NCBI GenBank assembly: GCA_903857825.1
Contig: CAIOGI010000006.1
Span: 25,132 to 89,131, forward strand
Length of the DNA stretch: 64,000 bases
Reading direction: 5' to 3'
DNA from: Candidatus Tayloriibacteriota bacterium
GTDB lineage: Bacteria; Patescibacteriota; Minisyncoccia; Phycocordibacterales; PALSA-1337
The translations under genes were made by a program, and so were the position numbers. The notes beneath the pieces are model-generated. The model had not been told where the DNA came from. It saw only the letters and a list, made by a program, of their open reading frames with translations, and did no database searches. The first letter of the stretch is position 1. Each line of letters starts with the position of its first letter. Of this stretch, positions 683 to 18,540 are shown piece by piece.

Positions 683-1363
683 CTATAAAACGTATTTGCC
701 TGCCTTATCATCTCGTATTATTTTACCTTTTTCCATAGTCAATACTCTTCCACCAACTTCATCTACAACTCCTTTGTTGTGTGTAGTCAATAAAACTGTT
801 GTACCCATTTTATGAATTTTCTGTAGTATTTTTATTATTTCATAAGTATTTATAGGGTCAAGATTACCTGTAGGCTCGTCGGCTATTATTATATCTGGTT
901 GAGTAACAATTGCTCTAGCTATAGCTACTCTTTGCTTTTCTCCTCCAGAAAGCTCATGCGGAAAACTCCATATTTTCTTTCCAAGATCTACTAACTCTAA
1001 TACATGTGGTACATCAGAATGAATTTCTGCATCAGTTCTACCAGCTGCTTCCATTACAAAGGCGATATTTTCATATGCTGTTTTATTGGGTATAAGACGA
1101 AAGTCTTGAAAAACTGTTCCGATTCTTCTTCGAAGCTTATTTATCTCTCTTTTCTTTAATTTGTTAATATTTGCAGACTCAAAAAATACTGAACCCTCGG
1201 ACGGTCTTTCTTCTGCTATAAGCATCTTTATTAAAGTACTTTTCCCAGCTCCAGAGTGCCCCACAATTGTAAGAAATTCATTTGGCTGAACACCAAAACT
1301 GACTTGATCAAGAGCAATACTTTCATCCGCATATATCTTTGAGACTTTATCGAAATAAATCAT
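683..1363 (-). CDS. ftsE: Cell division ATP-binding protein FtsE (ABC ATPase)
   Basis: Walker A GHSGAGKST, ABC signature LSGGEKQRVAIARA and Walker B IIIADEPTGNLD. The N-terminus MIYFDKVSKIY aligns with the FtsE start MIRFEHVSKAY, so the upstream 30 codons of the listed ORF are probably not translated. Confidence 0.9.
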   Translation of the reverse strand: MIYFDKVSKIYADESIALDQVSFGVQPNEFLTIVGHSGAGKSTLIKMLIAEERPSEGSVFFESANINKLKKREINKLRRRIGTVFQDFRLIPNKTAYENIAFVMEAAGRTDAEIHSDVPHVLELVDLGKKIWSFPHELSGGEKQRVAIARAIVTQPDIIIADEPTGNLDPINTYEIIKILQKIHKMGTTVLLTTHNKGVVDEVGGRVLTMEKGKIIRDDKAGKYVL

Positions 1364-1364
1364 G

Positions 1365-1500
1365 AATAGATTATACCACAAGGGTACTTCTATTTCACTA
1401 ATTCGCTGGGTACAGCTCATGTGAAATAAGTCGTGCCACAGGAGTACTTCCATTTTCTAATCGCTTCGCTCAAGAAAATTAGGTCGTACCACAAGTAATA
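1365..1500. repeat. Degenerate tandem repeat of about 55-57 bp, roughly 2.5 units, in the prfB-ftsE intergenic region
   Basis: Units ...taccacaagggtacttctatttcactaattcgctg... / ...tgccacaggagtacttccattttctaatcgcttcg... / ...tcgtaccacaagtaatattt... are visibly related by eye. Confidence 0.5.
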
Positions 1501-1511
1501 TTTAAATATAC

Positions 1512-1679
1512 AAAATTGGACTCGTCGACTTGCGCTCGGAAGTTCCTCTTTTTTTCACAAGTTCAAAAAAGTAGGACTTCCTCCTTACAGGAGCTGTACA
1601 CCTTTCACTTTTTGATTACAAAATGTTCAAGGTCTTGCGAAAGCTCCGCTTTCTCACACCGTGCCGAGTCTCAATTTTG
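1512..1679. repeat. Palindromic intergenic repeat element, copy A (extended variant, about 168 bp)
   Basis: Starts AAAATTGGACTCGTCGACTTGCGCTCGGA and ends CACCGTGCCGAGTCTCAATTTT, the same termini as copies at 4690, 29332, 52129 and 52647. It has an internal GGAAGTTCCTC-T7...A6-GTAGGACTTCC hairpin and sits directly 3' of prfB. Confidence 0.8.
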
Positions 1680-1683
1680 TTTT

Positions 1684-2565
1684 CTATAACATTCTTTCCC
1701 CTTCTATAAACTCATCGATATGCCCTTCCAAAACCTTTTCTATTTGTGAAGTTTCAATATTTGTCCTATGATCCTTTACCATTTTGTAAGGATGCATAAC
1801 ATAAGAGCGAATCTGATTCCCCCATTCAATAGAAGTTGTCTTACTGATATACAGTCCCTTTTCCTTGGCTATTCTTTCATCCTCTCTTAATTTAAATAGC
1901 TTTCCACGCAGAATATCCATTGCTTTTTCTTTGTTTTGAGCTTGTGATCTCTCCGAGGTAACATGTACTGAAAGCCCAGTCTCTTTGTGTACAATCCTTA
2001 CAGCTGTTTCTCTTTTGTTCACATTTTGGCCACCAGGTCCGCCTGACTTTGCTATAGAAATCTCAATATCTTTTTCAGGAAGATCCATATCTGCACTATT
2101 TGTTTTTTCAAATTTTGGTATTACTTCGACCATTGAAAAAGAAGTGTGTCGAAGTTGTTTAGCATTAAAAGGTGAAATACGCACAAGACGATGTACACCT
2201 GACTCATTCTTCAGATCTCCATATACATTTTTTCCGCTTATCTCAATAGTTATATTTCTGAAACCACCATGATCATTTTCGTTTGAATGTACGAGCTCCA
2301 TTCCCCAACCTTTTTTTTCTGAATATTTTCTATACATTCTATAAAGAATTGCTGAGAAATCCTCTGAGTCGTCACCTCCCGCTCCAGAAAATATAGTCAA
2401 GATTGCATTACCTTTATCAAACTTTCCAACACCTTCCAGTGAATTTTTTAAATCTGCTATTTCTTTTATCACTGCCTGCGCTTTGTTCTTATCAGCCCAA
2501 AAGTCAGTGCTTTGCATAGACATTTCCAATTCGTCAATCTTTTTCTGAATTTCCTCTTTTTGCAT
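1684..2565 (-). CDS. prfB: Peptide chain release factor 2 (short form)
   Basis: GGQ motif (SGGPGGQNVNKRETAVR) and the RF2-specific SPF tripeptide (RISPFNAKQLRHTSF). The N-terminal domain is much shorter than in E. coli RF2. Confidence 0.85.
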   Translation of the reverse strand: MQKEEIQKKIDELEMSMQSTDFWADKNKAQAVIKEIADLKNSLEGVGKFDKGNAILTIFSGAGGDDSEDFSAILYRMYRKYSEKKGWGMELVHSNENDHGGFRNITIEISGKNVYGDLKNESGVHRLVRISPFNAKQLRHTSFSMVEVIPKFEKTNSADMDLPEKDIEISIAKSGGPGGQNVNKRETAVRIVHKETGLSVHVTSERSQAQNKEKAMDILRGKLFKLREDERIAKEKGLYISKTTSIEWGNQIRSYVMHPYKMVKDHRTNIETSQIEKVLEGHIDEFIEGERML

Positions 2566-2763
2566 TAGTTTAGTGTATAAGAAAAAAGGGCAAAAGAAAA
2601 GCCGAGAGGGTGAACTACCTTCACATTAAGATGGGGATGAATCTGTATTTTGAAGTGTTAGAGACGCAACACAACAACTACATCCATTCACGGGCTCAAG
2701 AGCCTAACCAGCCCCAAACTTACCTCTCGACTATTCATCTATCATATCATGTATTCATTCCTG

Positions 2764-2834
2764 AGCCAAATGTGAGAATCGGACTCACATTCCCGCTTTA
2801 CGAAAGCGGTGTTCTACCATTGAACTAATTTGGC
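2764..2834 (-). tRNA. tRNA-Thr (anticodon CGT), 71 nt, no encoded CCA
   Basis: Hand fold of the minus strand gives acceptor GCCAAAT/ATTTGGC (7 bp), D arm GTTC-AATGGTA-GAAC, anticodon stem CCGCT/AGCGG with loop TTCGTAA and T arm GTGAG-TCCGATT-CTCAC. The listed + ORF 2610..2828 overlaps it and is spurious. Confidence 0.85.
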
Positions 2835-3101
2835 AAAAGGTGCCACTGAAATCCGAGACAAGTACACCTCGTTATAGTTACGGGCACTCACTCCGGAGAC
2901 ATGGTATGTTTGGCCCATGCCAGAGTTACTTATGTCTCACAGCCTAGGTATTGTAACCAATTATGCCGAAAGACTTCAGTGGCTTTTTTATATTAACATT
3001 TTATATTCAATTTGCCATTAATCTTTTTACATCTCACCTCCCTGTCACCTCCCTAGCCAAAACTTCATTTTTCTGATACAGTAAAAAACACAAACACTAG
3101 T

Positions 3102-4640
3102 ATGACAAAGGTAATTAAGGACAATTCAGCTAAATTAATTAAACGACCCCCAGTTGTAGTTATTATGGGTCATATTGACCATGGTAAGTCAACACTTCTA
3201 GATTATATACGAAAAGCAAATATTGTTGACGGTGAAGCTGGAGGTATCACCCAACATCTCGGCGCATACGAAGTAAATCACAAAACCAGCGAAGGAAAAG
3301 AAGGTAGAATAACTTTTCTTGACACACCAGGCCACGAAGCCTTCTGCAGTATAAGAGAGCGAGGTGCTCAAGTTGCTGATGTTGCCATACTCGTTGTCTC
3401 TGCCGAGGATGGAGTGAAGCCACAGACTCTTGAAGCATTAAAATGCATTTTGCTAGAAAAAATTCCATATGTAGTAGCAATAAATAAAATTGATAAAGCC
3501 GGAGCAGATATAGAAAAAACAAAGCAGAGCCTTGCAGAGAATGAGGTATATGTTGAAGGTTATGGTGGAGATATTCCTGTATGTGCAATTTCTGCTTTAA
3601 ATGGTGAAGGAATCGCAAATTTATTGGATATAGTCCTACTAGTCACTGATATGCTAGATCTAAAAGCAGATACGAATGCTAAAGCAGAGGGTTCTATAAT
3701 AGAAGCAAAACTCGACAGCAAAAAAGGAATTTCAGCAACATTACTGATTAAAAATGGAACTTTAGAATCAGGTCAGTTCGTTGTTGCAGGAGATTCTCTA
3801 TCCCCAGTTAGAATATTCGAAGACTATCAAGGTAAAGCTATAAAAAAAGCTAGCTTTTCAAGTCCAGTGAAAGTTATTGGTTTTAATAAAATACCAATAG
3901 TTGGAAGTAGATTTGTCACCTGTCTTAATAAAAAAGAGGCTGAAGAAACTGCAAAGAACTTTACAGAAACACACAAAGCAAAAGCTAGCGTGAATAGCTC
4001 ATATACCAGAAGAGATGAAAACGACACAACTGTAATTATCCCAATTATCATTAAAGCTGATGTTGTGGGAAGTCTCGAAGGCATAAAGCATGAATTAGTA
4101 AAGATAAAAAATGAAAAAGTAAAGATAAAAATAGTTTCAGAAAGTATTGGTAATATAAATGAAAATGATGTAAAGACTGTTCAGGGCGATCCAAATATTA
4201 TAATAGTAAGTTTCAATACAAGAATAGACTCAAAAGCTCAAGGGACAATAGAAAGGTCAAATATTAAAATAAAATCCTTCGACATAATATACAATCTAGT
4301 TCAATTCTTAAAAGACGAAGTTACTTCAAAAATTCCAAAAGAATATATTGATGAAATATCAGGAACTGCCAAAATTTTAGCCATTTTCAACAAAAGTAAA
4401 GACAAACAAATACTAGGTGGAAAAGTACAAATTGGCACACTCAATATAGGTTCTGAAGTAAAAATACTTCGTCGAGATATGGAAATAGGCAGAGGAAGGA
4501 TAAAAGAGCTTCAATTACAAAAAGTTAAGGCAACTGAGGTAAATGAGGGCTATGAATTTGGTTGTATGATAGAGTCAAAGATCGAGATCGCTCTCGGTGA
4601 CAAGGTGCAGGGATTTGTCACTGTGGAGAAGAAAGTGTAA
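3102..4640 (+). CDS. infB: Translation initiation factor IF-2 (short form lacking a long N-terminal region)
   Basis: G domain motifs VVIMGHIDHGKSTLLD, DTPGHEAF and NKIDK; rbfA is directly downstream. Confidence 0.9.
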   Translation: MTKVIKDNSAKLIKRPPVVVIMGHIDHGKSTLLDYIRKANIVDGEAGGITQHLGAYEVNHKTSEGKEGRITFLDTPGHEAFCSIRERGAQVADVAILVVSAEDGVKPQTLEALKCILLEKIPYVVAINKIDKAGADIEKTKQSLAENEVYVEGYGGDIPVCAISALNGEGIANLLDIVLLVTDMLDLKADTNAKAEGSIIEAKLDSKKGISATLLIKNGTLESGQFVVAGDSLSPVRIFEDYQGKAIKKASFSSPVKVIGFNKIPIVGSRFVTCLNKKEAEETAKNFTETHKAKASVNSSYTRRDENDTTVIIPIIIKADVVGSLEGIKHELVKIKNEKVKIKIVSESIGNINENDVKTVQGDPNIIIVSFNTRIDSKAQGTIERSNIKIKSFDIIYNLVQFLKDEVTSKIPKEYIDEISGTAKILAIFNKSKDKQILGGKVQIGTLNIGSEVKILRRDMEIGRGRIKELQLQKVKATEVNEGYEFGCMIESKIEIALGDKVQGFVTVEKKV

Positions 4641-4689
4641 TATGAGTAATAAGAAAATTGGACTTGTCGAGAAATTGTATTGAGTAAAC

Positions 4690-4781
4690 AAAATTGAGAC
4701 TCGACGCGGTGAGGAAGTCTTTTATTTTAGCTCTGCTACAAATAAAAGAGCTTCCGAGCGCAAGCAAGCGAGTCCAATTTT
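4690..4781. repeat. Palindromic intergenic repeat element, copy B (reverse orientation)
   Basis: AAAATTGAGACTCGACGCGGTGAGGAAGTCTTTTATTTTAGCTCTGCTACAAATAAAAGAGCTTCCGAGCGCAAGCAAGCGAGTCCAATTTT is the reverse complement of the copy C/D consensus, with compensatory changes in the central stem. A partial half-copy lies at 4654..4677. Confidence 0.8.
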
Positions 4782-4796
4782 GTGAGATAAAATAAT

Positions 4797-5129
4797 ATGT
4801 CATCATCAAGAGAACAAAAATTAAAAGATATAATAAAAGAAGCAGCAGCTGAGTTCCTTCAGCGTGAATCAAATCACATTTCCCTATTAACAGTAACCGA
4901 TGTTTCTCTTTCAGATCGCTGCAATCAAGCCACAATATTCTTTACAGTCCTTCCTCAGGACAAGGAAAAAGGTGCATTAGATTTCGTAAAGAGAAAGCGT
5001 GCAGAATTTAGAGAATATTTTAAAAGCAAAGCAAGAATGCGTGCACTTCCCTTTTTTGATTTTGAAATTGATAATGGAGAGAAGAATCGTCAAAGAATAG
5101 ACGAAATAGCTAGAAATGTTATAGAATAG
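4797..5129 (+). CDS. rbfA: Ribosome-binding factor A
   Basis: About 110 aa, directly after infB (a conserved gene order); LLTVTDVSLSDRCNQATIFFTVL resembles the RbfA core. Confidence 0.75.
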   Translation: MSSSREQKLKDIIKEAAAEFLQRESNHISLLTVTDVSLSDRCNQATIFFTVLPQDKEKGALDFVKRKRAEFREYFKSKARMRALPFFDFEIDNGEKNRQRIDEIARNVIE

Positions 5130-5137
5130 CAAGAGTC

Positions 5138-5211
5138 GGCGTAGTGGCGAAGTTGGTTAACGCAGCAGTTTGCAAAACTGCCATTCACCGGTTCGAGCCC
5201 GGTCTACGCCT
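5138..5211 (+). tRNA. tRNA-Cys (anticodon GCA), 74 nt, no encoded CCA
   Basis: Acceptor GGCGTAG/CTACGCC, anticodon stem GCAGT/ACTGC with loop TTGCAAA and T arm ACCGG-TTCGAGC-CCGGT. Confidence 0.85.
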
Positions 5212-5226
5212 CCCAAATTATTAATT

Positions 5227-5913
5227 ATGAAAAATCAAGATGACATTGATCCAAATGTCTTTTGGTATATTGTTGGATACATCGCAACTGATGGTTCACT
5301 GAGCAAAGATGGAAGGCATGTATCGATCACGTCAAAAGACCATGAACATTTAGAAAAAATCAAGAAAGAGCTTGGTATTACTTCTAAAATTACAAAAAAA
5401 TGTCGTGCCCGAGGAAAAGAAAAAATATATTCGGTAATACAGATAGGTGGCATATCAAATTATCGTTTCCTTAATTCTATTGGTATGTATTCCAGAAAGA
5501 CATGGAATATGGGTCCAATCAAGATTGACGAAAAGTTATTTGGTGATTTTCTAAGAGGTGTTATAGATGGTGATGGATGTATTTATTCTTGGAAGAATAA
5601 GAGCAATAATCATAAACAATGGTCTTTGAGAATTTCTGGAACAGCACCAAAGTTTATTGAATGGTTATTTGAGCACATACAGACAACTTTTATGGTACAA
5701 GGTAGATTACATATTGACAAAAGAAATAATCGATCAGATACATACATAATTAAATTTGGTAAATTAGCCACTCAACGTATATTGAGAGACATTTATTATG
5801 AAGATTGTTTCTGTTTAGATAGAAAATTAGTTAAAGCGAATGAGTGCTTGCAAGATGAAGCAAAGATGATAAAGTATGGTGGAGTAATATGCTCGGGTGG
5901 CGAAACTGGTTAG
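5227..5913 (+). CDS. LAGLIDADG-family homing endonuclease (two-motif, monomeric type)
   Basis: Two LAGLIDADG motifs: FWYIVGYIATDGSLS and LRGVIDGDGCIY. The listed ORF start 5170 lies inside tRNA-Cys, so the start is more likely MKNQDD at 5227. The 3' end overlaps tRNA-Leu by about 23 nt. Confidence 0.75.
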   Translation: MKNQDDIDPNVFWYIVGYIATDGSLSKDGRHVSITSKDHEHLEKIKKELGITSKITKKCRARGKEKIYSVIQIGGISNYRFLNSIGMYSRKTWNMGPIKIDEKLFGDFLRGVIDGDGCIYSWKNKSNNHKQWSLRISGTAPKFIEWLFEHIQTTFMVQGRLHIDKRNNRSDTYIIKFGKLATQRILRDIYYEDCFCLDRKLVKANECLQDEAKMIKYGGVICSGGETG

Positions 5914-5975
5914 ACGCAAAAGACTTAAAATCTTTCGACCGAAAGGTTATGCGGGTTCGACTCCCGCCCCGAGCA
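5891..5975 (+). tRNA. tRNA-Leu (anticodon TAA), 85 nt with long variable arm
   Basis: Acceptor GCTCGGG/CCCGAGC, anticodon stem AAAGA/TCTTT with loop CTTAAAA, variable arm CGACCGAAAGGTTAT and T arm GCGGG-TTCGACT-CCCGC. Confidence 0.85.
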
Positions 5976-6121
5976 CTGATCTGTGCCCCATAAAAGTAAC
6001 CCCTATTTACCAGTTTTTTGCTGTTTTCTGCTTGTTTGTATTTGTTTTACATAGTAAAATATAGTGTAGTATTGATTTTGTATTTTAGATTCAATTTTAT
6101 TATTAGTTAATTTTATATACA

Positions 6122-8926
6122 ATGGAACATTTACCATTACTAGCAGAAAAGAAAAGATATGAGGAATTATCAGGTGCTGAAAAACTAAAAGTTTTACAAA
6201 AACTTTACCTTGAGCAAACGGGTAAAAAACTTATGAATGTTTCTAGCGCTAATGAACCTGAATATATGAATCCCGTAGGAAAAGCTCCGGGAAGGTATGT
6301 AAGAGTAAGACCATATGAAGGAAGAGAGGCATTAGTTATGTTACCATCTGAGAATGTAGATGAGATAGATGGAACTCCGCCAGAAAACCAAACTTCTGAA
6401 ACAACAGCAGAAGAACCTTCGACAGATACTGTTGCTAAAGATACTATACAAACGCAAGGAATACAGACACCCACTTCACCGTTTTCTGAAATAAACGAAC
6501 CTAAACCGGACGTTCAAAATGAACCCATACCAACAACCGCGACTGGAAAAGAAAATTTGCCATATCAAATGTTTGATAATATTGGTCTTGGCTTTAATTA
6601 CGGCAAAGCTGGTGAAGGTCAGCAAATGGCAGATGAAGACAAACTGGAACTAGCTAATACAAGATGGCAAGTAAAACCTGATATTGCTTTAACAGAATCA
6701 GGTTCGGCTGACAAAATAGAAGATCCAAAAGAAAAAGCAGAAACCAAAGAACAATCTCCAAATACAGAAAAATTTCTATCTCCAGAAGATATTGCTAAAG
6801 AAATAGATGCATTTGAAATCAAAGAAGGAAATTCTATTGTCTTTCACTATGCGGACAAAGACAGTAAAGTAAAAATTATAAGGATAGATGGTGGAAGCAT
6901 TATATATAAAAGCTTTCTTAATCGCAAAGGCACTAATGAAGAAACGGCGAGTAATGAAAAGTCCTATGATAAAGACGGGGAAAGTTTTAAACGCGAACTC
7001 AAAGATCTTTTAGTTAATAAAGATGAGAAAATTATAAGCATTACCATAACAACTGCTGATAATTCAGAAAAAATAGATGATGGGCAGACTACAGAAGAGG
7101 TGTCACCTAAAGAATTTACTGCGGAAAAACTTCATATTGAAGATATTGCTAATGGATCAAAAAGAGTAAAAATTGAAGGTATGAATAGTGCTGGTGTAAC
7201 TACAACTTACACTCTACACAAAGGCACTCGTGCTGGAAAACCATTTTACTCAATTAAGACAGTAAATAGAGTAGCTTCTGGTTCAATACACCATGATAGT
7301 ACAGATGAACTTTTGAAATATCTTAATAACGACAAACTTACAAATGTTGTGATTAGTAGTGAAGAAGTAGTAATGCTGGAACCTGAAAAAGAAAAAGAAG
7401 TGCCTGATGAACCAGGACCTACTCCATCATTGGCAGGAGACCAACCCGTTAAACCTACACCGCAAGCTCCAAGTGGTACAGTTCCATTATCATCATTGTT
7501 TCCTGGAGGGGCAGTAGACTTTGGAACATTCAAACAAGCAACAGCAAAGACCGAACCTGCTACATCATTACCAGGAGACCGACCCGTTAAACCTACACCG
7601 CAAGCTCCAAGTGGTACAGTTACATTATCATCAATGTTTCCTGGAGGAGGAGTAGTGGACTTTAAGAAAGAAGAAGGACTATACGAAAAAGCAACACTTG
7701 CAGATATCAGACTAAGCTCAAAAAATAAAAGCTTTTTTGGTAAAATGTCAAAATTTGCACAGTCAATAGCGTTAAAACTCTATGAAGGCTCGGGAGTTAG
7801 TGACTTAGTTGCTAAATTTAGTATATGGAATGAGCAAGGCGGGATAAACGCTTTTGAAAAAATAGCAGTAACAAGAAAGGAAGAGATTGATGAAATTGAA
7901 CTTTTAAGCAAAGCTTTAGACCAGTCAAGGATAGCTATAAACAGTTCGATAGCATCACTTAAAGCAAAAGGATTATCAGGCGCTGAATCTCTTCAGATTG
8001 AACTTAGAAATATAGATAATGAAAAGAAAAAAATAGAAACAAGAAAAGATAGAATTAAAACTAAATTTGATAAAGCATACAATACAGCAAAAGTTTATTC
8101 AAATGATCGTGATGCCATAGCAAATAGAGTCATTGATCGATACAATGAAAAACTAGCACCGATAGAAGAACACTTAGAAACTCTTCAGGAGCAAAGAGTA
8201 AAACTCGAGATTCTTACCGTAGCAAGTCAAGAAGAATATGCACTCAAGCAAGAAGAAATTGATAGTTTAGTAGCAGAAAGAAATAACGAGGTTGAAAGAT
8301 TAAAAAATGCATCTAAAATAGTGATAACTGGTGCCCTTAAGAGACTTGATGGGAACATCAATTCAATACGAGAAAGTATAAAACTAGGTAGAGAAAAGTT
8401 GGAGGAAGAAAAAGTTGAAATAAATCGTCAAATTGCCAAAGCTGAAGAAAGAGCAAATCCATACAGAACAAGGAGGAATGAATTTACAAGAATGAAATCC
8501 CCTCTTATTGATATAAATGTGCCACCGATTTCAATAGAAAAAGATAGCAGGAAATTAAATGATATAGGAATCAGAACGGGAGGTGTTGTTGATACTAGTT
8601 TGCAACCAGAAATAAGTGTGACGCCAGAAACTCCCCCTGATGTGAAAAGATATGGTAAAGAGTGGGTGTCTATATCTAGCCATATCGGAGGCTGGAACAA
8701 ATATATAGAAGGGATAAAAGACGCCAACATAAATAAAGACCTATTCAAAATAGATATTAAAGGGTTATATTTCAATCATCCCAGGATAACTGGTGATCAA
8801 CTAGTTAGACGTGAGGCATTCCTCAAAACTCTTCAGATTCATATGGAAGCAATAGCAAAAAAGAATAGGGGCAGCCTTACCACTGAGACGATAAAGAAGG
8901 TTATCGCCGATTTTCCTAAAAATTAA
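6122..8926 (+). CDS. Large hypothetical protein (934 aa) with an acidic, T/P/E-rich N-terminal half, an internal tandem repeat and a C-terminal coiled-coil region
   Basis: Long ORF. An approximately 85-bp direct DNA repeat at about 7426..7510 and 7561..7645 encodes ...GD(Q/R)PVKPTPQAPSGTV(P/T)LSS(L/M)FPGG.... Heptad-like K/E-rich segments follow. No recognisable catalytic motif. Confidence 0.5.
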   Translation: MEHLPLLAEKKRYEELSGAEKLKVLQKLYLEQTGKKLMNVSSANEPEYMNPVGKAPGRYVRVRPYEGREALVMLPSENVDEIDGTPPENQTSETTAEEPSTDTVAKDTIQTQGIQTPTSPFSEINEPKPDVQNEPIPTTATGKENLPYQMFDNIGLGFNYGKAGEGQQMADEDKLELANTRWQVKPDIALTESGSADKIEDPKEKAETKEQSPNTEKFLSPEDIAKEIDAFEIKEGNSIVFHYADKDSKVKIIRIDGGSIIYKSFLNRKGTNEETASNEKSYDKDGESFKRELKDLLVNKDEKIISITITTADNSEKIDDGQTTEEVSPKEFTAEKLHIEDIANGSKRVKIEGMNSAGVTTTYTLHKGTRAGKPFYSIKTVNRVASGSIHHDSTDELLKYLNNDKLTNVVISSEEVVMLEPEKEKEVPDEPGPTPSLAGDQPVKPTPQAPSGTVPLSSLFPGGAVDFGTFKQATAKTEPATSLPGDRPVKPTPQAPSGTVTLSSMFPGGGVVDFKKEEGLYEKATLADIRLSSKNKSFFGKMSKFAQSIALKLYEGSGVSDLVAKFSIWNEQGGINAFEKIAVTRKEEIDEIELLSKALDQSRIAINSSIASLKAKGLSGAESLQIELRNIDNEKKKIETRKDRIKTKFDKAYNTAKVYSNDRDAIANRVIDRYNEKLAPIEEHLETLQEQRVKLEILTVASQEEYALKQEEIDSLVAERNNEVERLKNASKIVITGALKRLDGNINSIRESIKLGREKLEEEKVEINRQIAKAEERANPYRTRRNEFTRMKSPLIDINVPPISIEKDSRKLNDIGIRTGGVVDTSLQPEISVTPETPPDVKRYGKEWVSISSHIGGWNKYIEGIKDANINKDLFKIDIKGLYFNHPRITGDQLVRREAFLKTLQIHMEAIAKKNRGSLTTETIKKVIADFPKN

Positions 8927-8950
8927 TCATTTATTAAAATAATCAATAAT

Positions 8951-9250
8951 ATGAATTCGACAACAAAACAAAGTGCAACAAATAGTGACGATGAAAAAGA
9001 TTTTGATAAAGAAATTGATAATCTTTTAGAAAAGTCAAAAACTTTAAAAAAAGAAGTGGATGACTTGAATAAAGATTCTAGCAAAATTACAAGTGATGCA
9101 AAAAATGCTGTTGAGAAAAATTCAAAAAGTATAGACAAACTATGCAACGACTTGGACAAAGTTGATGAAGATGCTAATAATGATATCGATCTATTAATAC
9201 TTAAACAGGCTGAGGATTTGTCAAAACTTAAGGAAGAGGATGCGGAATAG
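8951..9250 (+). CDS. Small hypothetical coiled-coil protein (99 aa, D/K/E-rich)
   Basis: The ORF directly follows the 934-aa gene and has low-complexity charged composition. Coding status is uncertain. Confidence 0.35.
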   Translation: MNSTTKQSATNSDDEKDFDKEIDNLLEKSKTLKKEVDDLNKDSSKITSDAKNAVEKNSKSIDKLCNDLDKVDEDANNDIDLLILKQAEDLSKLKEEDAE

Positions 9251-9346
9251 TAAAAATATATAGTCGATAAAAACTATTATATACGAGCAATAATTAGCAA
9301 TCATTTGAATGATTGCTAATTTGCTATATTTTTGCTATATTTTTCT

Positions 9347-9494
9347 GGTAAGTGCCCATAGATGTTTTGGTAGACTTAGACCATATGTAGATCTTAGTTT
9401 GATAATATACAATTAAATAAGTATTGCGCCCATAGCTGTTCTGGTAGGCCCAGAGCATATGGACATCTTAGCTCGACAAGATACAATTAAATAA
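9347..9494 (+). pseudogene. Two tandem degenerate copies (about 74 bp each) of the tRNA-Lys 5' region: pseudo-tRNA fragments
   Basis: Unit 1 is GTGCCCATAGATGTTTTGGTAGACTTAGACCATATG...ACAATTAAATAA. Unit 2 is GTATTGCGCCCATAGCTGTTCTGGTAGGCCCAGAGCATATGG...ACAATTAAATAA. Both align to the genuine GCATTGCGCCCATAGCTCAGTTGGTAGAGCAG. Confidence 0.6.
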
Positions 9495-9499
9495 GCATT

Positions 9500-9572
9500 G
9501 CGCCCATAGCTCAGTTGGTAGAGCAGATCCCTCTTAAGGATAAGGTCGTAGGTTCGATCCCTACTGGGCGCA
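9500..9572 (+). tRNA. tRNA-Lys (anticodon CTT), 73 nt
   Basis: Acceptor GCGCCCA/TGGGCGC, D arm GCTC-AGTTGGTA-GAGC, anticodon loop CTCTTAA and T arm GTAGG-TTCGATC-CCTAC. The 3' 20 nt (TACTGGGCGCACAAGTGAGG) are repeated at 9631..9652. Confidence 0.8.
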
Positions 9573-9698
9573 CAAGTGAGGAAAAAGAGGTTTACCTCTT
9601 TCATTCCGAACGCAGTCGCCCATCACGAAGTACTGGGCGCACAAGTGAGGGTTGGAGAATTTATCTTCTTTGATCCAAGCTTAATAGAATAGAAACAT

Positions 9699-9780
9699 GC
9701 GCGGGTGGCGAAATTGGCAGACGCACTTGCCTTAGGAGCAAGCGGGGTAACCCTTGGAGGTTCAAGTCCTCTCCCGCGCA
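9699..9780 (+). tRNA. tRNA-Leu (anticodon TAG), 82 nt with long variable arm
   Basis: Acceptor GCGCGGG/CCCGCGC, anticodon stem CTTGC/GCAAG with loop CTTAGGA, variable arm CGGGGTAACCCTTG and T loop TTCAAGT. The 3' 18 nt are repeated at 9914..9933. Confidence 0.85.
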
Positions 9781-9789
9781 CAGAATAAT

Positions 9790-9818
9790 AAAAGACTGGA
9801 TAAATCCAGTCTTTTATT
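9790..9818 (+). terminator. Rho-independent terminator after the tRNA pair
   Basis: AAAAGACTGGA-TAAA-TCCAGTCTTTT followed by ATTATT: perfect 11-bp stem flanked by an A-tract and a T-tract. Confidence 0.7.
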
Positions 9819-9840
9819 ATTACTAGTATTTGCGATTAGG

Positions 9841-9933
9841 ACTTGAAAGACGGAGGACACGGAGGTGTCCGAGTCGGGGTCGCAGGCGAGCCTAACAAGG
9901 CGAGACCTGTGACCAAGTCCTCTCCCGCGCACT
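9841..9933 (+). pseudogene. GC-rich tRNA-like remnant ending with a duplicate of the tRNA-Leu 3' end
   Basis: ...GGAGGTGTCCGAGTCGGGG... resembles a tRNA 5' half. The terminal CCAAGTCCTCTCCCGCGCAC matches the tRNA-Leu(TAG) 3' end at 9762..9781. No complete cloverleaf can be folded. Confidence 0.45.
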
Positions 9934-10208
9934 GATATGTAAAATAAGCATAACTTTAGTTATGCGTTTTTACATTTATGAGGGCTTGAAGGCTAAAGCT
10001 ATACCAAGTTACTCCATGATTTAAGCCATATTTTATGTGCTTTCTTTGGCTATAATTTTAAACCCCGTTTTGCTATTGACATCTATATCAATATATGCTA
10101 GTATAACTATCAGACAGTTCCCCAAAACAAACCTAGATGCCTGTGTTGGGTATCAAGGTAAATATAACAATTCAGTGTGGGGAGTTGCCAACGGAGAAAG
10201 AACACACC

Positions 10209-10844
10209 ATGACAGTAAATGAAATCTTTGCCACGACAGCGACGGTTGCAGCCAGCGTTGTCCTAATGCTGGCATCCCAGCGCTACCAATCGTGGGAGGC
10301 TGGGAGGTGGCAAAACAAAGGACTCGACATGGCTCGAGTGACAAACAGTCCTGTGGCGATGGCGCCTACAAGCGTAACTCCCCCAACGGTAACTTACGTC
10401 ACAAACACAATCACCACACCCGCAACGCCTGCCGTGGTGGTGCCAACACCCCCACCAGTGACGGTAACCAACACAATCTTTACGACAAACGTCGTGGTGG
10501 TTACCACAACAAACGTGGCATCGGTAGCCTCACCGGTTAGAACAGGAACAACACCGAGTGGTGTGACCTGGCCTAATGATCGCTTGTCTGACAGGGTTGT
10601 CAGTTACAACAGCGTCACGAATGATGTAGTAACTGTCCCCCCGGGAGAAACTTTTCTCCTCGAGCCAGCAACTAAGCTCGATCTCAGTACGGCCTTCAAC
10701 CGCCAACTCCGATTCGCAAAGGCGGGGCAAGAGTTAGTGGCTGGCATGAGTAGCCCATACTTTCGTTCGCTTCCGGGGCCAACGACAGTAATGAACCCCG
10801 GATCGACGCCGATCCAGCTGAAGGTTCGAGTTACCCGACGGTAG
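10209..10844 (+). CDS. Membrane-anchored Thr/Pro/Val-rich hypothetical protein encoded on a GC-rich (about 52%) island
   Basis: GGAG Shine-Dalgarno 9-12 nt upstream of ATG at 10209. N-terminal hydrophobic anchor ATTATVAASVVLMLA, then TPPTVTYVTNTITTPATPAVVVPTPPPVTVTNT.... The GC content is far above the roughly 33-37% background. The listed ORF starts at 10137, but there is no RBS there. Confidence 0.6.
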   Translation: MTVNEIFATTATVAASVVLMLASQRYQSWEAGRWQNKGLDMARVTNSPVAMAPTSVTPPTVTYVTNTITTPATPAVVVPTPPPVTVTNTIFTTNVVVVTTTNVASVASPVRTGTTPSGVTWPNDRLSDRVVSYNSVTNDVVTVPPGETFLLEPATKLDLSTAFNRQLRFAKAGQELVAGMSSPYFRSLPGPTTVMNPGSTPIQLKVRVTRR

Positions 10845-10883
10845 CCGAACCCTGCGCGAGAACACCTCGCGCTAAACCAAAAA

Positions 10884-10927
10884 AGGACAGGAGTGCCATC
10901 ACATGTGGCCCCTGTCCTCTTTCTTTT
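10884..10927 (+). terminator. Rho-independent terminator after the GC-rich island gene
   Basis: AGGACAGG...CCCCTGTCCT hairpin followed by CTTTCTTTT. A second hairpin GCGCGAGAACACCTCGCGC lies at 10854..10872. Confidence 0.55.
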
Positions 10928-10948
10928 ACATAAATTATATTTATAAAA

Positions 10949-11248
10949 CTAAAATGTTGCAGTCTGTCCCAAACTACTAAATACAAACCGAACAATGCCA
11001 TAAGCTGAAATCATTATTGCCATACCTACCAAACCCCATAATATGTGCGTTTGCCCGGTTTTTCTTCTTTCTGGATCTTCCCCACCCATAATATATCCGA
11101 TTATACCCCAGATGAACATAAAGGTTGCCAGTACGAACATGAACTGTACTATTGGAGAAATAATATTATCTACTATTTTTAGAATTATCAAATCTGTAGC
11201 TGCTGAGCTATTATTCGCCGCTTCTGCAACTTTAGAGAAGATATTCAT
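10949..11248 (-). CDS. Small two-helix membrane protein, VirB2/TrbC-like pilin paralog 1
   Basis: Core FMFIWGIIGYIMGGEDPERRKTGQTHILWGLVGMAIMISAYGIV: two hydrophobic helices split by a short charged loop, shared with the four ORFs upstream. Confidence 0.55.
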   Translation of the reverse strand: MNIFSKVAEAANNSSAATDLIILKIVDNIISPIVQFMFVLATFMFIWGIIGYIMGGEDPERRKTGQTHILWGLVGMAIMISAYGIVRFVFSSLGQTATF

Positions 11249-11278
11249 TAATATAGCAAAATATTAACTGTATTTGGA

Positions 11279-11659
11279 TTATCTAACAGTAGTTGGATCG
11301 ATAACTTTTGGAAATTGGTTTTCTGTTGGAGTATTATTGCCTGTACCAAATGAATTCTTTAGTATTGCGACTAGACCCCAGATAGAAAGGATTACGAATA
11401 GACCAACAACACCGTATAGAATACGCAACCCCCCCTCTTTTCTTTTATCTTCTGAACCAGCAATAAGATATACAAAAACATTTACAACAATCCATATAAC
11501 TGCTAGAGATATAACAATAGTTATAAATGAGTTTCCAAGAGAAGTAAATTTACCAAAGATACTGTCTTGACCAGTACCATCAATTTTAGTTATAGTATTT
11601 TGAGCAAACACTGCCACCGGAGCTAATAATGAAACCGCAATTGCAATTATTTTTTTCAT
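11279..11659 (-). CDS. Small secreted two-helix membrane protein, VirB2/TrbC-like pilin paralog 2
   Basis: Signal peptide MKKIIAIAVSLLAPVAVFA; core IVVNVFVYLIAGSEDKRKEGGLRILYGVVGLFVILSIWGLV. Confidence 0.6.
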   Translation of the reverse strand: MKKIIAIAVSLLAPVAVFAQNTITKIDGTGQDSIFGKFTSLGNSFITIVISLAVIWIVVNVFVYLIAGSEDKRKEGGLRILYGVVGLFVILSIWGLVAILKNSFGTGNNTPTENQFPKVIDPTTVR

Positions 11660-11748
11660 ATTTTTTATTTAATAATAATACTTTTATTTACTAATTGTAA
11701 CAACATATAGGACAAGAAGCAATCTATGAATTGTGGAAAAGAGATAAG

Positions 11749-12165
11749 CTATATCCAGTCTTCGTCTTCGTTGTCATCTGGTGGTGTAGTCTGATTAAAA
11801 TTCCCAAACGGTATTGTGGGTGGTGTATTCTGCAATTTAAATGTATTAGTCAATATGAATACCAAGCCCCATATAGATAGTATTACAAAGAAGCCGATAA
11901 GGCTGTACATAACATATAGACCAGCTTCTTTTTTTGCTGCAGGATCATCACTTCCATATATGAAATACTTGAATACATTCCATACGAACATCAGAACTGC
12001 AAAGCTAATAATCAAATATATAGCATATTGAAAATAACCTGTAATTAATTGCATTAGACTTCTGAGATCAGTCACAGAACTTGGGGTTATCGCTGCTACA
12101 GCAGAAGCAAATGCAGGTGCTGATAACAATATCACTGCCATAATTGTTTTTTTCATATTATTCAT
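11749..12165 (-). CDS. Small secreted two-helix membrane protein, VirB2/TrbC-like pilin paralog 3
   Basis: Signal peptide MKKTIMAVILLSAPAFASA; core LMFVWNVFKYFIYGSDDPAAKKEAGLYVMYSLIGFFVILSIWGLVFIL. Confidence 0.6.
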   Translation of the reverse strand: MNNMKKTIMAVILLSAPAFASAVAAITPSSVTDLRSLMQLITGYFQYAIYLIISFAVLMFVWNVFKYFIYGSDDPAAKKEAGLYVMYSLIGFFVILSIWGLVFILTNTFKLQNTPPTIPFGNFNQTTPPDDNEDEDWI

Positions 12166-12174
12166 ATTATATTA

Positions 12175-12543
12175 TTAATTTCGATTAAACACACTACTGT
12201 CCACAACTCCAGCCGAGGATAGAGTATTTTTTAATATTTCTACGATGACCCTGGCACTTATTAAAATGGCCAATCCCACAATTATATACAGTAGCCACAT
12301 CTTTGCTTCTTTTAATTTATCCGTATTACCTTGAGCCATAACAAATTGGAATCCAACATATATTAAGGCGAGTATAGAGAATGCAACACCGATATACATT
12401 GCTATATCAACCGCTAGGTAAATAACCCCCTGAACACTCTCAACCTTTAGTGGATTTGTTAATTTATTACTTTCAACAGCAAAACTAACAGAAAATACTG
12501 AAAGAAAAGTGATGAAAATGAATGATGTTATTATTTTTTTCAT
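12175..12543 (-). CDS. Small secreted two-helix membrane protein, VirB2/TrbC-like pilin paralog 4
   Basis: Signal peptide MKKIITSFIFITFLSVFSVSFA; core ALIYVGFQFVMAQGNTDKLKEAKMWLLYIIVGLAILI. Confidence 0.6.
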   Translation of the reverse strand: MKKIITSFIFITFLSVFSVSFAVESNKLTNPLKVESVQGVIYLAVDIAMYIGVAFSILALIYVGFQFVMAQGNTDKLKEAKMWLLYIIVGLAILISARVIVEILKNTLSSAGVVDSSVFNRN

Positions 12544-12549
12544 ATTATT

Positions 12550-13017
12550 TTATTGACCCACTAGTGTACCTGTAACAGACAGGAATTCAGGGGTAAGTAT
12601 CCATTTTAATAATGTAGTGACGATAAACCACGCCATGAGAGCCCAAACAAAACCTTTTACTGCACTGATCATGATTTTCTTCGCTTTGTCGATATTACCC
12701 TTTGAACCAGTCATGTATAGAAAACCAGCATAAGCGAGAAGTCCCACCATAACTGGAATTGATATACCAAATGCCCAATTTATCAAATACTTCACCATTG
12801 AGACGAGATTTGCGAAATTACAAACAACCTGACGTTTACTCTCTCCAGGAGTCACCACTCCATCACATTGAACCCAACCACTATAATCAAGGGTTGTTGA
12901 GGGTGCAGGTACTGCTGGTGGAGGTGAATTGACAGAATAAACCAAAGGTGACAATGAATAACTACCTAATATAAGAAGGACGAGTGCAGCAAACTTTAAT
13001 ATAAATCTTTTATTCAT
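12550..13017 (-). CDS. Small secreted two-helix membrane protein, VirB2/TrbC-like pilin paralog 5 (Pro-rich, two Cys in the N-terminal part)
   Basis: Signal peptide; SPPPAVPAPSTT...C...C; core GLLAYAGFLYMTGSKGNIDKAKKIMISAVKGFVWALMAWFIV. Overlaps the upstream SBP gene by 8 nt. Confidence 0.55.
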   Translation of the reverse strand: MNKRFILKFAALVLLILGSYSLSPLVYSVNSPPPAVPAPSTTLDYSGWVQCDGVVTPGESKRQVVCNFANLVSMVKYLINWAFGISIPVMVGLLAYAGFLYMTGSKGNIDKAKKIMISAVKGFVWALMAWFIVTTLLKWILTPEFLSVTGTLVGQ

Positions 13018-17408: not shown

Positions 17409-17505
17409 GGTTTTCTAGTGATTTTCTATTAAATAATTCGGATTTTTATAAATTTTTATGTGTATATTATAGCAAATTTTAGCTTTTTTGTCGTGGGGAA
17501 AAGGG

Positions 17506-17535
17506 TTGACAATACTTAATTGTAATGATAGAAAT
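17506..17535 (+). promoter_or_regulatory. Candidate sigma70-type promoter driving the GC-rich segment
   Basis: TTGACA at 17506..17511, a 17-nt spacer, then a TAGAAA(T)-like -10 box. Confidence 0.4.
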
Positions 17536-17680
17536 ATCTGGAACACAGCGAACGTCTTGCTGTAAAAAGCACAAAGAAACACAGTACTGCATGCAAAAAG
17601 ATAAAGAGAGTTGGCCACCGCTTCCCGGTGATTTTCTTCAATTTCGTATTCCATCTCGCCCCAAAGGGAAATACTGGTAT

Positions 17681-17914
17681 ATGGATGTTGAACTCCTTCG
17701 GAATCACGAATTTGTTACCCTCCGTGGAAAGGAGGTGCACAAGCTCCCCTTACCCAAGAACAGACTTGAGATGGATCGTCTGGTCATGACTACTGCCAAA
17801 CTGCTCGTCGCTTCGGCTGGCTTGCGGATCATCAAATGGTCACACACCATTGACGACGGCGAGATCTATGTCTTCCGTCTCGGCCCAAAAGGAACACGTA
17901 GGAAAGTGAAGTGA
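17681..17914 (+). other. GC-rich (about 50%) segment spanning about 17560..17995, containing an ORF (77-129 aa depending on start) that may instead be a structured RNA
   Basis: Compositional contrast with flanks. The ORF ends ...LRIIKWSHTIDDGEIYVFRLGPKGTRRKVK, faintly RelE/ParE-like. There are also GC-rich hairpins (CCTCC-GTGGAAA-GGAGG), two CTTCGG motifs, and T-tracts at 17925 and 18000. Confidence 0.35.
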
Positions 17915-18114
17915 CGCCCTTGCTACCTTTTTTAATACATCACCTCGCCCCAGCAATCACCCCGCTCGTCGTAGCTCACAAGCTGCCACGGTGGGGTCTT
18001 TTTTTATTTAAATACTATTTACAACAACACAAGAGTTGTGTCGTAACTCAAATCTTTATCATTCCTTAATAATTTCTTTAGAACTTCTTAATAACTTTTT
18101 GCTAATCTAATGAA

Positions 18115-18540
18115 ATGAATGAAAAATATTTTAAAGATTTTGATAAATGGAATAATAAATCTAAAGAGATTGAATCAAAAGAGTTCGAGAACTTCTTTTA
18201 TGCTCGAGAAATCTGGTGGTGTGCTTTAGGCGTGAATATTGGCTCAGAACAAGATGGCAAAAATGATTCATTTGAAAGACCTGTATTGATTGTTCGACGA
18301 ATAAGTCGGGACTCGTGCATAATTTTACCATTCACAAGTAAAATTGTTGATAGTGACTATCGCGTAACTACAGAGAGCACCGGTATTCAAGCACAAGTCG
18401 TATTATCTCAAATAAAGACAATTAGCAGTAAGCGTCTATTAAGGAAAATAGGAAAAATTAAAACAATAATATTTTATGAGATACTAATAAAATTATCATT
18501 TATAATACTTGGTGTTTTGAAAGACGAAACCCCACCATAA
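18115..18540 (+). CDS. PemK/MazF-family endoribonuclease toxin (type II toxin-antitoxin toxin)
   Basis: EIWWCALGVNIGSEQDGKNDSFERPVLIVRRISRDSCIILPFTSKIVD...VLSQIKTISSKRLLRKIGKI matches the PemK/MazF pattern. No antitoxin-sized ORF is evident immediately upstream. Confidence 0.75.
   Translation: MNEKYFKDFDKWNNKSKEIESKEFENFFYAREIWWCALGVNIGSEQDGKNDSFERPVLIVRRISRDSCIILPFTSKIVDSDYRVTTESTGIQAQVVLSQIKTISSKRLLRKIGKIKTIIFYEILIKLSFIILGVLKDETPP

Follow-up and report, generated by a model that had tools for sequence, protein, structure and literature searches.

Are the duplicated tRNA ends beside a GC-rich gene in a Taylorbacteria genome the scars of a lost integrative element, or do they belong to something else? 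The question is raised by the tRNA-Lys(CTT) and tRNA-Leu(TAG) genes in a 64,000-nucleotide stretch of contig CAIOGI010000006.1; this whole stretch is called the window, and its first letter is position 1. Mobile DNA classically inserts at tRNA genes, and a duplicated tRNA end is as a rule taken for a scar left by an integrase. In the first-pass annotation, the repeats of both tRNA 3' ends, two degenerate copies of the tRNA-Lys 5' part and a neighbouring segment of high guanine-plus-cytosine (GC) content were taken for a decayed integrative element whose cargo gene survives. The account favoured here, on balance and with modest confidence, has three parts: the block behind tRNA-Leu belongs to a family of structured elements, named R1 in this analysis; further small insertions arose independently; and the GC-rich open reading frame (ORF) stands apart from both. 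The idea of an integration scar is right in spirit for the small insertions and wrong on the cargo.

The tRNA-Leu(TAG) gene (9699-9781, + strand; ARAGORN, Rfam 54.4 bits) is followed by a 151-bp block (9782-9932), which is one intact copy of R1. A repeat of the tRNA-Leu end had been described here, and it is exact over 19 nt (9763-9781 and 9914-9932), with 84% identity over 31 nt. The repeat copy in the gene, X1, comprises the last 18 nt (9764-9781), which X2 (9915-9932, + strand; repeat analysis and fold) reproduces at 18 of 18 positions, from T-loop position 57 to the 3' end; the T-loop, in which the repeat starts, is a classical sublocation of integration. The sequence between the copies had been called a GC-rich tRNA-like remnant, a description that must be given up, since it is an intact member of a conserved structured family and not debris. 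The unit opens with a terminator-like spacer hairpin (9784-9821, + strand; inverted-repeat and terminator analysis) that has a perfect 18-bp stem, a TAAAT-type loop, a T-rich tail and counterparts in the related loci L040 and L030. The R1 element itself (9836-9914, + strand; R1 covariance model and minimum free energy (MFE) fold) consists of a left arm AGGACUU (9838-9844), the word GAAAG, a helix P0 (GAC/GUC), a P1 hairpin (GGACAC/GUGUCC) and a P2 hairpin (GGUCGCAGG.../...CCUGUGACC) with a conserved G.U pair. The first seven nucleotides of X2, AAGUCCU, pair with the left arm while the other 11 are predicted to be single-stranded, 9836-9932 forming a four-helix element as a whole, and a terminator-like hairpin with a T-run (9948-9971, + strand; inverted repeat I5) closes the R1/X2 unit. 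In general terms, the R1 layout is a spacer hairpin, an arm complementary to T-loop/T-stem nucleotides 57-63, GAAAG, three helices ending in GUGACC, and a direct copy of the tRNA from nucleotide 57 to the 3' end.

Folded alone, the window unit adopts the family structure as its MFE structure (-46 kcal/mol, z -3.8), in which the copy of the acceptor strand, CUCCCGCGCAC, stays single-stranded. On the R1 model the window copy (9836-9920) scores 66.6 bits on the + strand (E 1e-12 to 1e-15) and 4.4 bits on the - strand, the former partly by construction, as this copy is one of the ten R1 training sequences; the metagenome copies described below are independent. The R1 model starts 55 nt behind the end of tRNA-Leu(TAG).

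L028, L030 (twice), L040 and L046 likewise have an exact copy of the tRNA-Leu(TAG) tail 3' of the gene, and 5 of 20 distinct tRNA-Leu(TAG) loci carry the tail duplication. In L040 the tRNAs stand in a different context, with rpmF next to them, and show the same arrangement as the window. The intervening sequences of the window, L040 and L030 have in common the TAAAT-loop hairpin, whose stem covaries, and a GC-rich part GAAAG-NC-GGAG-hairpin-CGAG-NC-GGGGUCG...YGUGACC. The same core was found 3' of tRNA-Lys in six relatives, of tRNA-Gln in L024 and of tRNA-Leu in L040 and L030. RNAalifold on ten sequences gave 21 pairs, 13 of them with compensatory changes, and the R1 covariance model, run on 1.27 Mb of related loci and the window, matched the tRNA-adjacent copies only.

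Metagenome contigs were pre-scanned by a pattern that contained no tRNA sequence, yielding at least 80 loci, and the R1 model was then applied at E < 0.01; the results on the genomic context of R1 are therefore independent of the search. At least 89 R1 copies were found in at least 80 metagenome loci, and the counts that follow refer to 89 copies among the matches listed. Paired cells make up 95.1% of the structure, shuffles reaching 71.6%; covariation scores 0.562, while shuffles give 0.156 and slid controls about 0.07; and double changes occur in 18 of the 21 pairs, all of these counts resting on an alignment fitted to the R1 model. The G.U pair, contained in the base GGUCG/UGACC, is retained in 85 of the 89 copies, from which it follows that the structure is specific to the tRNA-sense strand.

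In the window only tRNAs were found at the Rfam 15 gathering threshold, and nothing credible in 9200-11100 at E up to 10; 12 other R1-bearing loci gave only tRNA and one group I intron match. No Rfam 15 family, RtT, tRNA-like RNAs, ribozymes, int-alpA and large ornate RNAs included, matches R1, and a full-text literature search returned nothing relevant to it. As far as these tools show, R1 is an uncatalogued family.

A related arrangement, type B, was seen in L028 (20127-20280), L030 (12412-12554, - strand) and L046 (12969-13218), with target-derived arms like those of R1 and another core, laid out as AGGACUCG-AAAAG-UCUGAGCAU-hairpin-GCGAAGACUGUAC-hairpin. The arm logic is the same: AGGACUCG pairs with CGAGUCCU, and the window equivalent, AGGACUUG/CAAGUCCU, is a compensatory change, an A-U pair in the window arm replacing the G-C pair of L028/L046-type elements. 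A hammerhead-like reading of type B (CUGA...GAA) was rejected on inspection, the core having no NGA and the junction order not fitting a hammerhead. CGAG words are strongly strand-asymmetric (11 CGAG against 0 CTCG in L040) and lie mostly beside hairpins. They may form tandem G.A loops. A role as protein-binding sites in helical phase was rejected, the spacing of the words being irregular.

Where the sampled locus reaches far enough, R1 is a neighbour of tRNA genes. A same-strand tRNA lies upstream within the sampled locus for 69 of the 89 copies and within 110 nt for 55 (median 53 nt); the density of tRNAs would predict about 1-2. R1 always has the orientation of its tRNA; at least 35 anticodon types, in CPR-like (candidate phyla radiation) and other bacteria, and 56 of 126 tRNAs in the sampled loci bear it. 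In the T-loop type, what follows ...GUGACC is a second copy of the neighbouring tRNA, reaching from the T-loop to the 3' end. Among the matches listed, 39 units allow the repeat to be placed: its start lies 17-24 nt before the called tRNA end, 32 of these units having it at 18 nt, and the distance is 20 nt for genes that encode CCA. The repeat varies from 6 to 80 nt in total length and often runs on into the host-specific trailer. In about one third of these units X2 is an exact 18-nt copy of the adjacent tRNA 3' end, and this holds across many tRNAs. The arm immediately 5' of GAAAG is complementary to the start of the repeat and covaries with the T-loop/T-stem of each tRNA, positions 1-6 of the closing helix being paired in 73-90% of units, a share that falls to 41-67% when partners are shuffled. 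A second subtype, found at tRNA-Lys, tRNA-Ile and some tRNA-Arg genes, reads UUGU|GCGAG...GACC|ACAA and has a short repeat that starts at the discriminator.

R1 copies may also be numerous at one locus. Tandem arrays occur in L030 and L084, and in L171 and L128 up to four adjacent tRNAs each have a divergent R1. In L171 (7121-8463) four copies lie near a cluster of the window type (Cys, Leu(TAA), Lys, Leu(TAG)), three of them 52-75 nt behind a tRNA and the copy nearest Leu(TAA) 334 nt away; in L128 (876-3525) four copies stand behind Thr, Met and other tRNAs. Since these two loci hold four copies each, a large share of tRNA genes must bear R1 in some genomes. L128 also has a group I intron (4331-4534, + strand; Rfam 58.6 bits) about 220 nt upstream of an R1 copy (4757-4875) where ARAGORN calls no tRNA, and this intron may lie inside an intron-containing tRNA gene. 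In L104 (13878-14131), an exact copy of tRNA-Arg(TCT) nucleotides 1-53 is followed by R1 and then by a non-matching T-loop/3' part, with an intact tRNA-Arg(TCT) 20 nt further on, an arrangement which places R1 inside a T-loop with a duplication on the 5' side.

The neighbourhoods of R1 are those of ordinary genes. The 150 ORFs within 3.5 kb of R1 copies among the matches listed encode housekeeping proteins (IF-2, EF-G, RNase R, RecG, FtsH and others). Near the 89 copies there is no enrichment of any recombinase or transposase family, the 25 largest families of these ORFs all being housekeeping, and no TnpB/IscB or TnpA family is among those 25, single-member families being left out of this count. 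An autonomous form in viral contigs was rejected, 13 of 14 matches being chance hits in high-GC phages and the remaining one, L084, a real tandem array in a housekeeping context. Larger inserts between tRNA and R1 were likewise rejected: L170 holds a TauE transporter, L162 a 271-aa ORF, L031 an ORF with no recombinase domain, and the element in L098 is independent of R1. The latter (861-10135) is an element of about 9 kb at tRNA-Ser(CGA) with a large serine recombinase, a Rep of the pSAM2/G2P type, an Ltp lipoprotein, GIY-YIG and phage-like genes. R1 lies 9 kb from the tRNA-Ser there, and because a degenerate third copy of the tRNA end, with a terminator, is found at the junction just upstream of the R1 arm, the large element must have entered between the tRNA and a pre-existing R1.

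What, then, is the GC-rich gene beyond these repeats? The segment next to the tRNAs does stand out as had been noted: GC is 0.475-0.58 over 10100-10900 against about 0.35 in the window, the highest GC block of the 64 kb. It holds an orphan ORF of 235 aa (10137-10844, + strand; 212 aa from the ATG at 10206; ORF and composition analyses) with an N-terminal hydrophobic transmembrane (TM) helix, a linker rich in Thr, Val and Pro (37, 32 and 21 residues) and a C-terminal part of about 90 aa. A promoter-like site TTGACA-17-TAGTAT with TG (10076-10104, + strand; 10 of 12 matches) precedes it, GGAG stands 12 nt before the ATG, and a terminator follows (10880-10926, + strand; inverted repeat I7 and sequence), composed of a hairpin GGACAGG.../...CCTGTCC (10880-10922) and a T-run. 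The ORF forms a transcription unit of its own, lies outside all repeat pairs and is not a bounded cargo. Of the membrane-anchored, Thr/Pro/Val-rich protein that had been announced, the TM helix, the GGAG as Shine-Dalgarno sequence and the terminator stand, and its translation is uncertain.

Judged from its sequence, the ORF is probably translated. The competing reading, which is possible and carries appreciable weight though it is the less probable one, is that the segment 10110-10925 encodes no protein: it would be either a structured non-coding RNA or a recent ORF devoid of function, and the frame a by-product of a T-poor, ACN/CCN/GTN-repetitive composition. In its favour, GC is flat over the codon positions (0.54/0.545/0.56, against 0.49/0.37/0.22 in host genes), the choice among synonymous codons is close to even, and the N- and C-terminal parts have no codon-position bias (p about 0.2). 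Furthermore, the RNA fold of the + strand reaches z -8.3, an AlphaFold2 single-sequence model of the product has a pLDDT (predicted local distance difference test) of 40, Pfam gives no match, and in 5.8 billion clustered proteins and 1.84 billion representatives only self-matches, and so no donor lineage, were found. The sole weak remote match, P0003, is a 10-fold repeat protein matched ten times and was set aside as probably spurious. On the other side, the frame runs through 235 codons with no stop, 8 and 17 stops interrupt the other two + frames, and about 8 would be expected from a composition-based chance estimate (P about 3e-4); the period-3 signal has z 13, though it comes from the Thr/Val/Pro linker only; promoter, GGAG and terminator are in place; and the - strand also folds (z -5.2). 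A large ornate RNA of the GOLLD/ROOL kind was tried for the GC island and is kept only as a rival: Rfam gave no match even at E up to 10, and 80 related loci hold no homologous DNA.

This ORF occupies a slot that is also filled in relatives. There, the interval between tRNA-Leu(TAG) and a pilin gene array is taken by one to three ORFs on the tRNA strand: first a TM-helix protein of 270-580 aa whose linker is rich in P/A/T, followed by a product of about 330-380 aa and another of about 120-180 aa. The contigs of the two closest genomes, CAIMDI01 and JANNAN01 (GyrA 92-93%), stop short of the slot. The TM anchor, low-complexity linker and beta-rich tail of the window ORF resemble these slot proteins, several of which also end in an alternating hydrophobic strand with basic residues (LKVRVTRR in the window). 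The slot ORFs are mutually non-homologous, bar weak links among the proteins of about 350 aa, and homology of the window ORF to its positional analogues was rejected (phmmer none; hhalign probability 0.3%). In 13 relatives the slot ORFs exceed their own genomes by 4-16 GC points, with raised GC at third codon positions (GC3; 0.56 for the window ORF against about 0.22 in host genes), mostly with no tRNA-end duplication, and for this reason the GC shift is a property of the locus and not a one-off import. The slot is a hypervariable, compositionally deviant feature common to the clade, of which the window holds a reduced, lineage-specific version.

How R1 came to lie behind so many tRNAs still calls for a mechanism. 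A tentative one, to which somewhat less than even weight is given, is that R1 is a selfish, non-autonomous element, resembling an intron or a retroelement, that would depend on its folded RNA to propagate. It would enter tRNA genes at a fixed T-loop point, nucleotides 56/57, or at the discriminator in the Lys/Ile subtype, and would keep the tRNA gene intact by duplicating a stretch of target that varies between 18 and more than 40 nt. The arm could then pair with either target copy, and recombination between the two copies would remove R1, which would explain its patchy distribution. A classical integrase attachment (att) scar or a cut-and-paste miniature inverted-repeat transposable element is hard to fit because the junction is fixed, the duplication variable and the arm re-templated, and because of the strand specificity and fold, the tandem arrays and the patchiness.

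Several points weigh against this proposal and the account that contains it. No mobilising enzyme was found near R1 and no gain event between near-identical strains; the arm is re-templated for each tRNA species, and to our knowledge no insertion mechanism does so; and same-locus copies are nearest relatives in only 3 of 40 cases, by which recent intragenomic bursts were rejected and which fits a long-retained, host-useful RNA. The covariation counts depend on the fitted alignment, the strong terminator at 9784-9821 between tRNA-Leu and R1 makes transcription of the window copy uncertain, and the synteny of the GC-rich ORF with the sister ORFs is positional only.

Some of these points lead to the next rival, namely that R1 is a host-maintained, cis-acting 3'-trailer RNA of the tRNA unit whose arm would pair with X1 or with X2 as a decoy. 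Proposed roles, on sequence grounds, might be 3'-end processing or quality control, a tRNA-end decoy against tRNA-directed nucleases, or a source of the 18-nt 3' fragment. The strongly conserved, strand-specific structure with its retained G.U pair and constant orientation would suit such an RNA, as would the exact tail copy in about one third of units, the divergent copies at up to four adjacent tRNAs, the 56 of 126 tRNAs bearing R1 and the neighbourhoods with no mobility genes. The presence of R1 at orthologous tRNAs, by contrast, is patchy (5 of 20 tRNA-Leu(TAG) loci; none in the sister locus L217 or in most Taylorbacteria), and the tandem arrays, the mismatched configuration in L104 and the terminator ahead of the window copy also speak against a host RNA, the main rival, which is rated less likely than the selfish element though it keeps a real share of the probability. 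Clearly less plausible is a further possibility, that R1 is a mobile element built on structured RNA, or a programmable RNA module, dedicated to tRNA genes and directing a trans-acting enzyme or its own catalysis to the universally conserved T-loop. The scaffold would then read into the 18-nt tRNA-tail copy and carry its internal complement, long duplications fixed at one end would keep the gene, and the candidate enzyme would be a reverse transcriptase/endonuclease, a recombinase or a nuclease.

The smaller duplications were traced by comparison with relatives. The host is a member of Candidatus Taylorbacteria (CPR/Paceibacteria), with GyrA identity of 72-93% to 80 Taylorbacteria/Paceibacteria loci; sister loci were retrieved through GyrA and a substrate-binding protein (SBP) after a 934-aa neighbour had given no relatives. 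In relatives (L006, L011, L067, L073, L081 and also L217) the Cys(GCA)-Leu(TAA)-Lys(CTT)-Leu(TAG) genes form a compact cluster of about 500 bp, and the window locus is a native, vertically inherited version of it that accumulated several small independent insertions, each copying part of a neighbouring tRNA gene. The best full-length relative available, L217 (SBP 65% identical), has the same gene order from gyrA to IF-2, and when aligned to the window it is empty at three sites: the 151-bp R1 block 3' of tRNA-Leu, a 69-bp insertion 3' of tRNA-Lys, and two pseudo-5' units 5' of tRNA-Lys. The insertion (9582-9650, + strand) behind tRNA-Lys(CTT) (9500-9573, + strand; ARAGORN, Rfam 70.1 bits) consists of 49 nt (9582-9630) and a second copy of the 20-bp target TACTGGGCGCACAAGTGAGG (9631-9650), an exact 20-mer also present at 9562-9581, with a spacing of 69 nt. 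The repeat of the tRNA-Lys end that had been described is thereby upheld, with the correction that 12 nt belong to the tRNA and 8 nt to the trailer. In L217 the tRNA-Lys runs into a single uninterrupted CACAAGTGAG, including the AAGTGAG trailer, and the 20-bp duplication together with this empty site identifies the 3' block as an insertion. A truncated R1 was rejected for the 49-nt insert, which scores 2.1 bits on the R1 model. Reading tRNA-end duplications as integration scars was correct in that insertion events took place, and for tRNA-Leu the block turned out to be R1.

On the 5' side, the two 74-bp tandem copies of the tRNA-Lys 5' part with its leader are found as described (Tandem Repeats Finder: array 9354-9511, period 74, 2.1 copies, 84% matches). 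Unit 1 (9352-9425, + strand; repeat families D1/D2) is a degenerate copy of tRNA-Lys nucleotides 1-22 and about 52 nt of leader, and unit 2 (9426-9499, + strand; tandem-repeat, repeat and promoter scans) holds a promoter-like TGGACA-16-TACAAT (9460-9487) ahead of the real tRNA-Lys. They are treated here as recurrent promoter-proximal duplications of a promoter-like site plus tRNA-Lys nucleotides 1-22. Could they, with the downstream repeats, be ordinary tandem tRNA duplications that decayed by slippage or unequal crossing-over, with no element involved? The copies are head to tail with a period as long as a tRNA, the promoter forms part of the repeated unit, 10 of the 187 tRNAs of the sampled loci are preceded by a partial 5' duplication that extends to the D-loop, and repeats can expand or contract by recombination. 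This explanation nevertheless fails for the tRNA-Leu block, a conserved element common to other tRNAs and phyla. Moreover, unit 2 and the homologous units of L062 (two identical, 73 bp), L034 and L018 have the same D-loop change, ATAGCTGTYYTGGTAG in place of ATAGCTCAGYTGGTAG (CAG to GTY), while the first 7 nt match each resident acceptor stem, a pattern in four genomes that independent decay would not be expected to give; the explanation is therefore doubtful. Among the ten partial duplications, L119, L143, L099, L105 and L114 have copies of the first 11-18 nt of the tRNA, breaking in the D-loop, 57-167 nt upstream of an intact Tyr, Val, Asn, Leu or Pro tRNA, and two are otherwise explained, by the L104 arrangement and by an R1 stem in L159. 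The 5'-partial copies may be the 5'-side counterpart of the 3' duplications.

That a tRNA-integrating element at tRNA-Lys or tRNA-Leu lost its integrase and left att duplications and GC-rich cargo is very improbable: direct repeats of tRNA 3' ends, one of them from the T-loop, an orphan ORF of foreign-looking GC and GC3, and the receipt of elements by tRNAs of the clade, as in L098, speak for it, but the repeat pairs enclose 49 nt (9582-9630) and 132 nt (9782-9913) only, with the ORF beyond the second tRNA-Leu copy and no third tRNA-end repeat in the window past 10930, the inter-repeat sequence at tRNA-Leu is a complete R1 unit, R1 neighbourhoods have no recombinases and the L098 element is independent of R1, relatives have GC-shifted ORFs in the slot mostly with no duplications, and the gene map with Pfam shows no integrase within about 10 kb on either side. 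The absence of an integrase, which the first-pass annotation had also recorded, extends to the adjacent ORFs, none with a recombinase domain. Its proposal of a decayed element thus keeps the small insertions and the atypical composition, and loses the bracketing of foreign DNA by the repeats and the link to a surviving cargo. The comparison with sister genomes that it had recommended gave empty sites in L217 for the small insertions, whereas the GC-rich slot was occupied in all relatives examined. An assembly artefact, a concern it had raised, is unlikely, because 1750 bp (9251-11000) are 100% identical in L001, an independent assembly of the Joint Genome Institute, and the ORF product is recorded on 36 contigs, 16 of them read.

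Other features surround the locus. The tRNA cluster of the window is interrupted twice, by an ORF at 5227-5913 and by a 3.5-kb stretch with two orphan genes at 6122-9250. The former (+ strand) is a free-standing LAGLIDADG homing endonuclease (PF14528, E 3e-17) between tRNA-Cys (5138-5213) and tRNA-Leu(TAA) (5891-5976), the start of which it overlaps by 23 nt; L217 has an HNH endonuclease ORF between tRNA-Lys and tRNA-Leu(TAA), and neither endonuclease occurs in the compact clusters of other relatives. The latter (+ strand) is an insertion between tRNA-Leu(TAA) and tRNA-Lys relative to all sister clusters and encodes 934-aa and 99-aa orphan proteins with no Pfam match and host-like composition (GC3 about 0.22); for the 934-aa protein no homologue outside its own strain was found in GTDB representative genomes and the protein database. 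Downstream, five tandem divergent type IV secretion system (T4SS) pilin genes (10949-13017, - strand; PF18895/TrbC-like) adjoin the gene of an ABC substrate-binding protein; the array is kept in relatives and forms the border of the hypervariable slot. A second local GC peak (0.48; 17501-18000) overlaps an unannotated 129-aa ORF (17525-17914; 107 aa in L001), next to which lies a PemK-family toxin gene (region 18115-18540).

In a wider sense, one "integrase scar" turns out to be a conserved, strand-specific, covarying structure that goes with almost all tRNA specificities in bacteria of the CPR type and in some other lineages. If R1 is selfish, it would have a route to colonise essential genes without killing them, through target duplication from a fixed T-loop point; if it is a host RNA, it would be an unrecognised part of tRNA transcription units in minimal-genome organisms. 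Annotation pipelines would currently report such sites as "pseudo-tRNA fragments" only. For GC-shifted orphan genes beside tRNAs, the label "island" calls for caution, the slot being deviant and hypervariable in every genome examined.

R1 may finally be set beside known systems. With tRNA-att sites and cis-mobilisable remnants (CIMEs) it has in common a tRNA repeat from the T-loop or discriminator to the 3' end, an intact tRNA, tandem accretion and presence/absence polymorphism. It differs from them in its units of 100-250 bp with no recombinase nearby, in a repeat that often runs into the host-specific trailer, in the inverted target-derived arm and covarying strand-specific core between the repeats, and in one family serving at least 35 tRNA species. 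The E. coli tyrT locus has 178-bp repeats, each holding the last 19 nt of tRNA-Tyr, and its RtT RNA is an Rfam family. These repeats resemble R1 in being downstream, co-oriented, possibly tandem and copies of the last ~19 nt of a tRNA, whereas R1 has no Rfam match and shows a shared core with a closing helix at many tRNAs across phyla, not at one locus. The reRNA or omegaRNA of TnpB in IS200/IS605 is a guide-carrying transposon RNA, and R1 bears a resemblance to it, though a resemblance only, in having a structured scaffold with about 18 nt at the 3' end identical to adjacent target DNA. A further likeness is that the true target is preceded by the universal T-loop motif GTTC, the element copy by GUGACC. 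In R1, unlike in these systems, no TnpB/IscB/TnpA gene is enriched near the 89 copies among the matches listed, the target exists in two copies, and the arm would cover the "guide". tRNA genes are also interrupted by archaeal non-canonical introns, the split tRNAs of Nanoarchaeum and bacterial group I introns. R1 differs from introns in that an intact tRNA copy is adjacent in 69 of those 89 cases, where the locus reaches it, so that splicing is not needed; its core is too small for a group I or II intron, neither Rfam model matches, no Rfam ribozyme match was obtained at R1, and on inspection its junction order is not that of a hammerhead. Its likeness to introns is seen in L104, where R1 stands between a complete 5' part (nucleotides 1-53) and a T-loop/3' part, and in the 4 nt beside the core that pair with the start of the "3' exon", in the manner of an internal guide sequence.

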